Below the pieces are notes generated by a model. That model was not told where the DNA came from. It ran no database searches and saw only the letters and a list, made by a program, of their open reading frames with translations. Below, in pieces: positions 4,569-37,406 of a stretch of 37,406 bases of DNA. How positions within the stretch are numbered: the stretch's first letter is position 1; every line of letters starts with the position of its first letter. Position numbers and translations under genes: made by a program. Origin of the DNA: a virus (Duplodnaviria > Heunggongvirae > Uroviricota > Caudoviricetes); IMG/VR virus record IMGVR_UViG_2778261667_000012, positions 1-37,406 of that record, one strand, 5' to 3'.

Positions 4569-4814
4569 GTGATGGGCAAAGAATATAAAACTCTCATTAA
4601 CAAAGCACTTGAGCGTTTTTATTTTCGCTTAAGCGCATCAGGCGCTCATGCTGAACGTGCAGCCCGTGACTCATTGACCAGGGCAATCCGGAGTCTGTAT
4701 GACGTGGCTTTTTACGCTGATGATCTGGATGCACTTAACGAACTTTCCGAGCTGATCTGTGCCGCAGAATGCGGGGAACATATTGAACCGTATAAGCTGG
4801 GGAATATTGCATGA
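4569..4814 (+). CDS. Hypothetical early protein
   Basis: 81-aa ORF, tightly packed after the previous gene. Confidence 0.5.
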   Translation: MMGKEYKTLINKALERFYFRLSASGAHAERAARDSLTRAIRSLYDVAFYADDLDALNELSELICAAECGEHIEPYKLGNIA

Positions 4815-6816: not shown

Positions 6817-7051
6817 CACAAAAAAACCGCTTGCCATGCCGCAATCAGTCAGGTTACATTTCCGCTGCGCCTCATAAAACGGGTGCCGGGATTGGAACCC
6901 CGCAGACTAACAGAGCGCACAACCGCGCCAGCGGTTTTTTTGTGCGTGCCGTATCGCCACGTCTTTTTCGCGTCAGAATTATGGTGGGGCGTACAGGGCC
7001 AGCATCAGCTGGGCCGGGTCCTCTGTTAGCCGGTAGTTCCAACCCTGTACG
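6817..7051. ncRNA. Structured non-coding region; candidate sRNA or regulatory/ori-like element
   Basis: 15-nt perfect inverted repeat (6817-6831 / 6930-6944) ending in a T7 run, plus a second 9-nt inverted repeat (6990-6998 / 7043-7051). The overlapping ORF 6810..7427 is low-complexity. Confidence 0.25.
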
Positions 7052-7120
7052 TCTCACCACCCCGAGCTTGGAACCTCTGGATGGTGAGTTTTCAAAACTG
7101 ACTAACAGAGAGGCCACATC

Positions 7121-35603: not shown

Positions 35604-35945
35604 TCACCGGGCATAAAATCCACATAAACGCCCCATCACGCAACGCACGGTTCAGGCCGTGCGTTTTCATATCTGCCACCTGATTAATGCGTTCTGCGTG
35701 CCATTCCGGCGCTGTATGCGCACACCACGTAAACGGTGTGACGTAAAGCGTGAGGTGACGTAAACCGCGCTACCCCCTCCAACCCGCGGGTTTTGTGTCG
35801 AAACACTTTTTCAGTTTTCTGCCGTGCAAAAATGACCGTCAGCCCGCGCTGCGACTGAGGGAAAGGCGAGGATCTGAAATTTCACGTTTTGAAATTTTTT
35901 GCAGTTTTCAGAGAGGTTTTTACGATCGCACAAATGGTAGGAGCA

Positions 35946-36083
35946 ATGAAACCGCATGATATTAAAAGAGTTTTCATACTTTACGCGAGACGAGAAACGA
36001 TCACGAAAGGATCGCATCAAAAAATCGTCAAACAACGAAGCCTGACGCAGCACGGCCTGCGTAAAATTAAGAGTCAAAATTAA
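35946..36083 (+). CDS. Small basic hypothetical ORF (45 aa)
   Basis: AGGAG 4-5 nt upstream of the ATG at 35946; translation MKPHDIKRVFILYARRETITKGSHQKIV…; low support. Confidence 0.2.
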   Translation: MKPHDIKRVFILYARRETITKGSHQKIVKQRSLTQHGLRKIKSQN

Positions 36084-36433
36084 ACTGAAAAAAGGATCAA
36101 TACCGCGCCTCGATCACGCATGACGATCTACACAGCAACAGGGCGAAAAAAAACCGGCGCGAACGCCGGCGGAAGCATGTATCAAATGCGTGACTGAATA
36201 ATGTCTACGGTCGGGAATTTTACATCAGAAGGCTGATAAGTCTCAACGGATTGAAACAAGGGAAAAAACCAGGCTAGAATTCGCGCGGGTGCCTTTCGGC
36301 TGATGGCTGGAGGGAATACCTGAAGGCCGGATGTGGAAAGGCCCCGGAAAACATTTTCTGTTTAACCGAGGCCCTAACCGCATTACCTTCGCAAGTGATA
36401 GGTTAGCGCCTCTCCAATAAAGGAGCAAGCGCT

Positions 36434-36574
36434 ATGTCGCAAAAATCGCTTATGGCCATCACGTTCTGCGTGACGGCAATCCTCATCATCTGGATGCTGC
36501 ACGGTTCGCTGTGTGAAATACGGATGAGCTTCTGGGGAGCGGAGTTTGCGGCGTTCTTACAGTGTAAACAGTAA
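36434..36574 (+). CDS. Hok/Gef-family type I toxin (46 aa), not in the ORF track
   Basis: AAGGAG RBS. Translation MSQKSLMAITFCVTAILIIWMLHGSLCEIRMSFWGAEFAAFLQCKQ has an N-terminal TM helix, the LCEIR motif and an E(V/F)AAF C-terminal motif typical of Hok proteins. A 9-bp-stem hairpin follows at about 36586-36607. Confidence 0.55.
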   Translation: MSQKSLMAITFCVTAILIIWMLHGSLCEIRMSFWGAEFAAFLQCKQ

Positions 36575-36714
36575 GGAAACCGCGACGGGGGAGCAATCCC
36601 CCGTCAATCGGTTGCTAAGGCAAGGTCGTAAAGGCACCCTATCTCACAGGCATGTCCCCACGGCGCAAATTTTGTCTCCCTTATGAATAGGGACGACATC
36701 TGCAGTTCGTCTAC

Positions 36715-37230
36715 TTACTTAGGTTTTGCAGAAAACCACAATCCTGCCACTTGAGTAGCAATCATTGTATAACGCACTCGCTGGGTATCAAAGCGGGCCC
36801 CATTTTCATCATGATCAGCGGCAGCTTTAATCATCTTAGAAAGATGTTCGCCACGACTTTCTGCTGGAATTTCCGGTGAAAATATTTTCATCAAAACAGC
36901 CTGCAATAACAACGCCCCTAAAGCCCCGTCACCATTAGGCGATGCAAAAATAGCCGTCACATCTTTTATTTTCTTACTACCCTTATCCACAGCAACAACC
37001 AAGGCGGTCGTTTCACTTAAATTAATTTGTGCAACATCATTAACCTCACCATGTGAAATACTTACCTTTTTACTCAATTTAAACCCAAGAGCCTTAGAGG
37101 TGCTTTTTAATTCACTGTTAAGTTTTTTATTAAATTGTTCTGCTGTTAGATCAAATGTTGAAGAGGCTAAAGATAAACCTGACCAACAAATTAGAAAGAA
37201 CAAAACCACATATTTAATAACTCTACTCAT
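36715..37230 (-). CDS. Secreted/periplasmic hypothetical protein (Sec signal peptide)
   Basis: 171 aa; N-terminus [24 protein letters not shown]… is signal-peptide-like. The gene is AT-rich. Confidence 0.5.
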
Positions 37231-37406
37231 TCACTACACACCTTTTTAGAGCGGCTGATTGAGCCATCATTACAAACAAATTTTCCATCCTTAGTACAAT
37301 GTGACACCCCACCTTTACTACCAGAACATGGCTTCCGCCCACGCCCAGCATCAGCGTTCATTGACAAAACGAAACCGATACAAGCAATCACTAAAAATTT
37401 GTACAT
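37227..37406 (-). CDS. Small secreted Cys-rich peptide (59 aa); start codon at the window edge
   Basis: Translation [59 protein letters not shown]: signal peptide plus a mature region with 4 Cys. ATGA-coupled to the downstream gene. Confidence 0.35.

Follow-up and report, generated by a model that had tools for sequence, protein, structure and literature searches.

Near the right end of the window, by which we mean the whole stretch of 37,406 nucleotides analysed here, lies a short open reading frame (36434-36574, + strand, ATG start), which according to the ORF listing of the window encodes a peptide of 46 residues, MSQKSLMAITFCVTAILIIWMLHGSLCEIRMSFWGAEFAAFLQCKQ. It forms part of a hok cassette which in full extends over approximately 36251-36650. 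The elements assigned to this cassette, apart from the reading frame itself, are as follows.

36251-36256 and 36275-36280, + strand: predicted sigma-70 promoter of the hok mRNA (TTGAAA, 18-nt spacer, TAGAAT; 10 of 12 positions in a consensus scan)
36287-36301, + strand: 5′ end of the hok mRNA (GGGUGCCUUUCGGCU), the tac equivalent, pairing with 36624-36639
36287-36433, + strand: hok leader of 147 nt, assigned by its match to RF01794
36331-36420, + strand: upstream ORF of 29 codons in the mok reading frame (ATG at 36331, TAA at 36418-36420)
36423-36428 and 36400-36405, − strand: predicted promoter of a Sok-like RNA (−35 TTGCTC and −10 TAACCT, each the complement of the given positions, 17-nt spacer; position-weight scan)
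36392 to about 36335, − strand: predicted Sok-like RNA of about 58 nt, placed by the promoter site, the hairpin and the position of sokC
36374-36392, − strand: variable 5′ recognition tail of the predicted Sok-like RNA, the most variable stretch of the leader
3′ part of the predicted Sok-like RNA, − strand: terminator-like hairpin GGCCUCGG...CCGGGGCC, then UUUCC (fold z = −3.4; stem with two compensatory pairs)
36405-36433, + strand: hairpin sequestering the hok ribosome-binding site (AAGGAG, 36420-36425) with GCGC/GCGC and CUCC/GGAG arms, seen in the fold and in conserved columns
36584-36605, + strand: GC-rich stem-loop of the 3′ UTR (GACGGGGGAG-CAAU-CCCCCGUC), 9-10 bp, with double changes among homologues at five of nine pairs
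36624-36639, + strand: 3′ fold-back element (GGUCG-U-AAAGGCACCC), the fbi equivalent, complementary to the 5′ end

The peptide carries the motifs LCEIR at residues 26-30 and EFAAF at residues 37-41, and a 19-residue hydrophobicity window exceeds 2.0 across residues 4-27, which is consistent with a single N-terminal transmembrane helix. On these features the sequence-only reading had assigned the ORF to the Hok/Gef family, and the assignment is borne out by the Pfam profile PF01848 (HOK_GEF), against which the peptide scores 30.2 bits (E 3.5e-7, profile positions 5-42 of 42). As the gathering score is 22 bits, the ORF is not a chance one. With 46 residues, one N-terminal transmembrane helix, an L-C-E motif and a C-terminal Cys, the peptide also fits the size and motif criteria applied for Hok/Gef (about 45-55 residues, one N-terminal transmembrane helix, L-C-E, C-terminal Cys or Tyr). 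L26-C27-E28 and C44 are kept in 27-28 of 28 subfamily members and correspond to the conserved L30/C31/E32 and the C/Y at position 48 of the family logo (10.1101/2025.08.07.668861). The best NCBIfam match is the HokA equivalog NF007290, with 33.3 bits below the curated cut-off of 89, and HokA is the closest K-12 paralogue (42.5% identity over 40 residues, shared ...LAAFLxCK tail). Judged by these scores, the peptide is a Hok-family, HokA-like toxin, but not HokA itself. A median dN/dS of 0.24 among 23 intact hok homologues indicates purifying selection on the ORF, synonymous change being favoured.

In a preprint by Escalera-Maurer et al. (2026), which lists 1264 Hok peptides in 61 clusters and describes hok as enriched in prophages (10.1101/2025.08.07.668861), cluster 72, one of the Hok 60%-identity clusters defined there, holds two relatives of the window peptide: 72_1621 with 97.8% identity and one different residue (T7M, M7 for T7), and 72_1589, the Stx-phage form, with 73.9% identity. 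Other examples from this cluster, P88 gp52 (YP_009113095, “MokW-like host killing”) and WP_000078916 (“Hok/Gef family protein”), share the 46-residue architecture and the motifs. According to Table S2 of the preprint, both 72_1621 and 72_1589 are among the peptides tested for toxicity by arabinose-induced over-expression (10.1101/2025.08.07.668861). Toxicity was found for 42 of 45 tested Hok homologues, the non-toxic ones being 19_179, 60_1482 and 69_1540, none of them from cluster 72 (10.1101/2025.08.07.668861). Toxicity of the window peptide may be presumed from its one-residue variant 72_1621 in the tested set, for which it is reported. The exact protein of the window is indexed in 1297 blocks of a public collection under the names “Hok/Gef family protein”, “protein HokA” and, in Citrobacter, “Prophage host toxic membrane protein” (D2TSG6), and all 67 homologous database clusters which carry any name are called Hok/Gef. 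The earlier description of the locus as unannotated thus holds for the ORF track on which it was based but not for public databases, and the cassette is an already known, routinely annotated kind of element.

The transcript of the hok gene is predicted to start at about G36287, downstream of the sigma-70 promoter. Where the 5′ end of aligned homologues is intact, most of them have a TAGAAT, TAGATT, TAAATT or TAGAGT hexamer about 6-7 nt 5′ of GGGTGCC. Position 1 of the Rfam model RF01794 aligns to 36287, the same base as the predicted start, and the leader matches the model end to end (model 1-157, 44.3 bits, E 2e-8). This score falls below the gathering score of 59 bits; the match was seen only in E-value mode, and a search at Rfam gathering thresholds gave no match in the hok locus. 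Although named “sok”, RF01794 in practice describes the hok leader: K-12 hokC and hokB match it on the sense strand between +1 and the hok AUG, with 118 and 110 bits, respectively. Alignment with homologous copies delimits a conserved DNA block from about 36283 to about 36650, and its conservation stops about 10 nt past the 3′ fold-back element. The sequence-only reading had placed the locus at 36243-36610, which includes the promoter but cuts off this conserved 3′ element. The conservation borders coincide with the predicted mRNA ends, GGGTGCC ... GGCACCC (window 36283-36650 compared with L001, L004 and L011), and both the promoter-proximal DNA and all downstream DNA differ among P2-like, HP1-like and lambdoid hosts of the cassette. 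Damaged copies occur among the homologues, L031 being devoid of the 5′ element and L023 carrying a leader deletion.

The RNA from 36287 to 36648 (362 nt) folds with −160.9 kcal/mol and z = −7.6 relative to shuffled sequences. The leader is accordingly structured as claimed before, its description as GC-rich being overstated at 54% G+C. In the minimum-energy and centroid folds the RNA is closed by a 15-bp helix between the 5′ end and the fold-back element. Native 5′/3′ duplexes of −22 to −31 kcal/mol are found in all 15 homologues, and GGGUGCC/GGCACCC is nearly invariant among them with two G-U variants, so that the consensus fold reveals no covariation in the core of the closing helix. Native pairs are barely more stable than non-native ones (−27.2 versus −25.7 kcal/mol) and add no evidence for co-evolution. 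Compensatory pairs are present in five helices of the consensus structure of the 15 homologues, two such pairs lying in the helix GGCCCCG/CGAGGCC (36340-36346 with 36367-36373). Besides the hairpin which sequesters the ribosome-binding site, a 14-bp helix in the consensus fold pairs the hok AUG region (36434-36449) with 36539-36554 inside the coding region; this helix explains why the nucleotides encoding MSQK and AEFAAF are near-invariant. The stem-loop noticed earlier behind the ORF is confirmed at 36584-36605, where the five double changes are compensatory; it is not the end of the locus, however, and no U-run follows it on the + strand. Probably it serves as a stabiliser or as a 3′-processing stop. 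A standard scan found no canonical + strand terminator at the locus. The tac/ucb pairing expected in a 3′-truncated RNA is absent from the minimum-energy fold, in which the 5′ end pairs locally and not with the ucb-like GGAAAGGCCCC.

Opposite the leader, a Sok-like RNA of about 58 nt is predicted to be encoded. Its putative promoter lies at −34 to −29 from the hok ATG in all 16 homologues scanned with a position-weight matrix (Escherichia, Salmonella, Citrobacter and Klebsiella copies), with a shift of 1 nt in three of them, and ranks first or second in every cassette. The −35 hexamer varies between TTGCTC, TTGCCT, TTGACT and TTTACT. TTGCTC and TAACCT are weak matches; a standard promoter scan detected the sense promoter but missed the antisense one, and the conservation of the latter could partly reflect constraints by the sense-strand structure. 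The annotated K-12 sokC corresponds to RF01794 model positions of about 44-106, in the window about 36331-36392. The predicted antisense promoter site matches the position of the sokC promoter, and the geometry of hairpin and U-tail matches that of annotated SokC. The most variable stretch of the leader coincides with the 5′ tail of the predicted Sok-like RNA, as expected for a paralogue-specific recognition element. On the same strand, just upstream of the cassette, the sequence TTGAGA-18-TAAAAT (36246-36217) resembles a promoter pointing away from the hok promoter; on its 3′ side follows a strong terminator-like hairpin with a T8 run (36170-36153), and a minus-strand transcript of about 60 nt would result. 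This unit (36146-36246) has an unremarkable fold (z = −1.9), and the phage collection contains no match to the intergenic stretch 35604-36250.

The sequence-only reading had expected a hok/sok-type architecture in which an antisense RNA and an overlapping mok-type frame regulate the toxin. The architecture was recovered in the leader match, the closing helix and the position of the antisense promoter, but the mok-type frame was not: no + strand ORF of the window overlaps the hok start, and such a frame is not conserved in the subfamily. RF01794 model positions 97-99, where K-12 mokC has its AUG, read AUU in the window, and no AUG, GUG or UUG follows the conserved GAGG box as a mok start in any homologue examined. 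A long frame overlapping hok is found in only two of 15 homologues. The window contains instead the upstream ORF of 29 codons, whose TAA shares one base with the hok ribosome-binding site and lies 14 nt ahead of the hok ATG. This ORF is not conserved; start, frame and stop vary among the 15 homologues through small indels. Since translation of mok in R1 is required only as far as the hok ribosome-binding site (PMC9841398), the 29-codon ORF of the window could, by analogy, substitute for mok. Mok has also been described as hard to identify (10.1101/2025.08.07.668861). Without a conserved mok frame, the coupling mechanism of R1 is not transferable as it stands, and this is the only departure from the textbook hok/sok system.

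The left end of the window lies within glsA (1-933, − strand), followed by a tyrosine integrase gene (1202-2239), and the body of the prophage encodes a P2-type replication nickase, terminase, portal, capsid, sheath, tape measure, tail fibres and a baseplate of the HP1-ORF34 type. Similarity to prophage-free E. coli ends at about position 1147 of the window, and alignment with this empty site defines one further feature.

1115-1147, strand not applicable: attL core (TAATTTCTTGACCTTCCCCTTGCTGG...), with TAATTTCTTGACCTTCCCCTTGCTGG at 1121-1143

In prophage-free E. coli, the element TAATTTCTTGACCTTCCCCTTGCTGG is present as a single copy before copA, some 50 bp upstream of the start codon of that gene. 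A further copy lies between copA and a ydcA-like gene in longer contigs, the hok cassettes of which share 96-100% identity with that of the window. By aligning the empty E. coli site with such longer contigs of the same lineage, attR was located; its copy is seen in L012 at 4606-4628 and would lie about 180-200 bp beyond the right end (37406) in the prophage of the window. A search for attL/attR direct repeats within the window found none because attR is outside. Integration duplicates the core, the attR copy keeping the native sequence before copA and the attL copy facing the integrase end. The core region resembles a copA promoter with what we take to be a CueR-type dyad. Judged from these alignments, hok, together with the two genes of low GC content on its right, is inside an att-bounded P2/HP1-like prophage. 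As glsA of the host is only about 90% identical to that of E. coli, and the flanking proteins are labelled Escherichia, sequence identity suggests a non-coli or cryptic-clade Escherichia as host.

The same cassette is found with about 93% identity near the right end of P88-like phages (Xuanwuvirus; P88 gp52), where it is preceded by gpD, or by Ogr in related prophages, and with about 82% identity beside lom in Stx phages, annotated as Hok/Gef. Its presence in sequenced P88-like and Stx phages identifies it, on comparative grounds, as mobile phage cargo, an accessory (moron) gene next to attR. The choice between phage cargo and a chromosomal locus, left undecided by the sequence-only reading, thereby falls to phage cargo, with the cassette both inside attL-attR and in phage genomes. 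The window copy and the phages of cluster 72 have in common an att-adjacent position at the right end of P2-like prophages; they differ in the backbone, with the HP1-ORF34-type baseplate module directly upstream in the window instead of gpD/Ogr, and in the promoter-proximal flank. Between hok and attR lies a block of 40% GC with genes at 36715-37230 and 37227-37406 (both − strand), encoding a 171-residue protein with a signal-peptide-like N-terminus (PHROG 23546) and a YdcA-family protein of 59 residues. In K-12, ydcA likewise adjoins a hok locus (ydcA-hokB-sokB). E. coli CP131 has a serine acetyltransferase gene in the slot of this block, which characterizes the hok-attR interval as a variable cargo slot.

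Among the characterized Hok systems, R1 hok/sok shares with the window a Hok-family peptide (39% identity over 31 residues), a closing helix of the tac/fbi type, a buried ribosome-binding site, an antisense RNA gene, predicted in the window, in the corresponding part of the leader, and pairing of a GAGG box with a GGCCCC box upstream of it. It differs in being plasmid-borne instead of phage-borne and in having a mok AUG after the GAGG box and a frame overlapping hok. The leaders of hokC/mokC/sokC and hokB/mokB/sokB from K-12 align to the same Rfam model, with sokC and sokB equivalently placed, but these loci have annotated mok frames, which the window lacks. The best functional precedent for the window cassette is hokW-sokW of the Stx2 prophage Sp5, likewise a Hok-family type I toxin-antitoxin system carried as prophage cargo. 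It depends on RNase III and Hfq (PMC8621323), and after induction the toxin appears and brings lysis and phage release forward (PMC8621323). HokW itself is a HokD-like peptide of 51 residues with 31% identity over 42 residues to the window peptide, and belongs to the 60%-identity cluster 35, in contrast to the window-type peptides of cluster 72 (Table S2). The Stx-phage copies of the cassette were considered as hokW and rejected, given that the primers of the hokW-sokW study and Table S2 show HokW to be this different 51-residue peptide; the label “MokW-like” on 46-residue phage genes was not accepted as evidence of hokW identity either, as it is a PHROG-derived name.

The profile match of the peptide, the RF01794 match of the leader, the closing helix, the position of the antisense promoter and the public Hok/Gef annotation together support a Hok/Gef-family type I toxin locus with an RNA architecture of the hok/sok type. 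It is on this basis highly probable that the stretch of about 36251-36650 constitutes a prophage-borne hok/sok-type type I toxin-antitoxin cassette, for which we propose the following scenario. A constitutive promoter would give rise to an mRNA of about 355-365 nt, which in its full-length form would be translationally inert, as its two ends are paired with each other and neither the ribosome-binding site nor the AUG is accessible. In analogy to R1 hok, whose mechanism is established (PMC9841398), slow 3′ trimming to the stem-loop at 36584-36605 might remove the fold-back element and allow refolding into a translatable form. From TTGCTC-17-TAACCT on the − strand, a short and unstable antisense RNA (about 58 nt) would be transcribed. 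Fully complementary to the leader at 36335-36392, it would block ribosome entry, including that at the 29-codon upstream ORF, and trigger cleavage by RNase III. Once antisense transcription ceases, because the prophage is lost or induced or because an infecting phage shuts transcription off, translation of the stable mRNA pool would set in. The 46-residue peptide would then insert into the inner membrane, with depolarisation or death of the cell as the outcome. Most likely, the cassette serves prophage addiction and/or assists lysis after induction, the latter as shown for hokW-sokW.

The toxin gene might, on the other hand, be intact while the locus as a whole is regulatory debris or silent, with a buried ribosome-binding site that is never opened without mok and a cassette that merely hitch-hikes. 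The missing conserved mok start, the upstream ORFs differing in start, frame and stop, and the damaged copies L031 and L023 agree with such a state, and several chromosomal hok loci of K-12 are annotated as inactivated, e.g. hokA/sokA disrupted by IS150. We nevertheless regard it as unlikely, given that the ORF is intact and under purifying selection, that the exact protein is present in 1297 collection blocks, and that RNA ends, ribosome-binding-site hairpin and antisense promoter are kept across the Escherichia, Salmonella, Citrobacter and Klebsiella copies. Moreover, the point to which mok has to be translated, the hok ribosome-binding site (PMC9841398), is reached by the upstream ORF of the window.

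Considerably less probable still is a Hok toxin devoid of a cis-antisense antitoxin, controlled by mRNA folding only or by a phage factor acting in trans such as the minus-strand unit at 36146-36246. The weak and only predicted hexamers of the antisense promoter speak for it, as do the promoter-like site and the strong terminator just upstream on the minus strand. The position of the antisense promoter is, however, kept in 16 of 16 homologues, including P88-type and Stx-type copies which have no 36146-36246 unit, and hairpin and U-tail are arranged as in annotated SokC; the upstream stretch lacks a counterpart in the phage collection and its fold is inconspicuous. A chance small ORF in an intergenic region, finally, would be compatible with a length of 46 codons, which is under ordinary gene-calling thresholds. 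This explanation is refuted by the Pfam score above the curated threshold, the hundreds of conserved homologues and the dN/dS value, which reflects selection for synonymous change, and in view of the RNA fold as well its probability is practically nil.

Within the favoured reading as a hok/sok-type cassette, the lack of a conserved mok frame bears on the way in which Hok of this subfamily is translated. It is conceivable, if rather doubtful, that the 46-residue cluster 72 cassettes represent a mok-less hok/sok variant, in which Hok translation is uncoupled from a conserved overlapping leader peptide and which also moves as a discrete unit, with the mRNA ends as borders, between P2-like, HP1-like and lambdoid phages. 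If so, expression would be gated directly by mRNA refolding and Sok-triggered cleavage or, alternatively, by heterogeneous short upstream ORFs ending near the ribosome-binding-site hairpin, as the 29-codon ORF of the window does. In practical terms, the prophage carries a type I toxin-antitoxin accessory gene which is overlooked by gene callers with a floor of 60 residues. Its relevance is limited mostly to correct annotation and is of use when the prophage is cloned, deleted or induced: deleting the antisense promoter could prove lethal, and an influence of the cassette on the stability of the prophage or on the timing of lysis is possible.

The diversity of homologues was drawn from contigs encoding related proteins and not from a scan of genome contigs, which yielded seven loci, three of them on likely contaminant contigs. 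These three (L018, L019 and L022, from a Planococcaceae metagenome-assembled genome, Vagococcus sp. and Xanthomonas pisi, respectively) carry hok sequences 72-96% identical to that of the window and are most likely contaminants in those assemblies. Two Salmonella contigs, L032 and L033, contain at 205-1341 three tandem 46-residue hok cassettes with a spacing of 498 bp and diverged leaders, which illustrates the hok “islets” of the preprint (10.1101/2025.08.07.668861). Elsewhere in the window, Rfam matches above gathering were obtained in the early region for isrK (69.5 bits) and C4 antisense RNA (78.5 bits), which adjoin each other at 6867-6941 and 6977-7064 (+ strand). This pair at 6867-7064 presumably resembles an immunity module of the P1/P7 c4 type.
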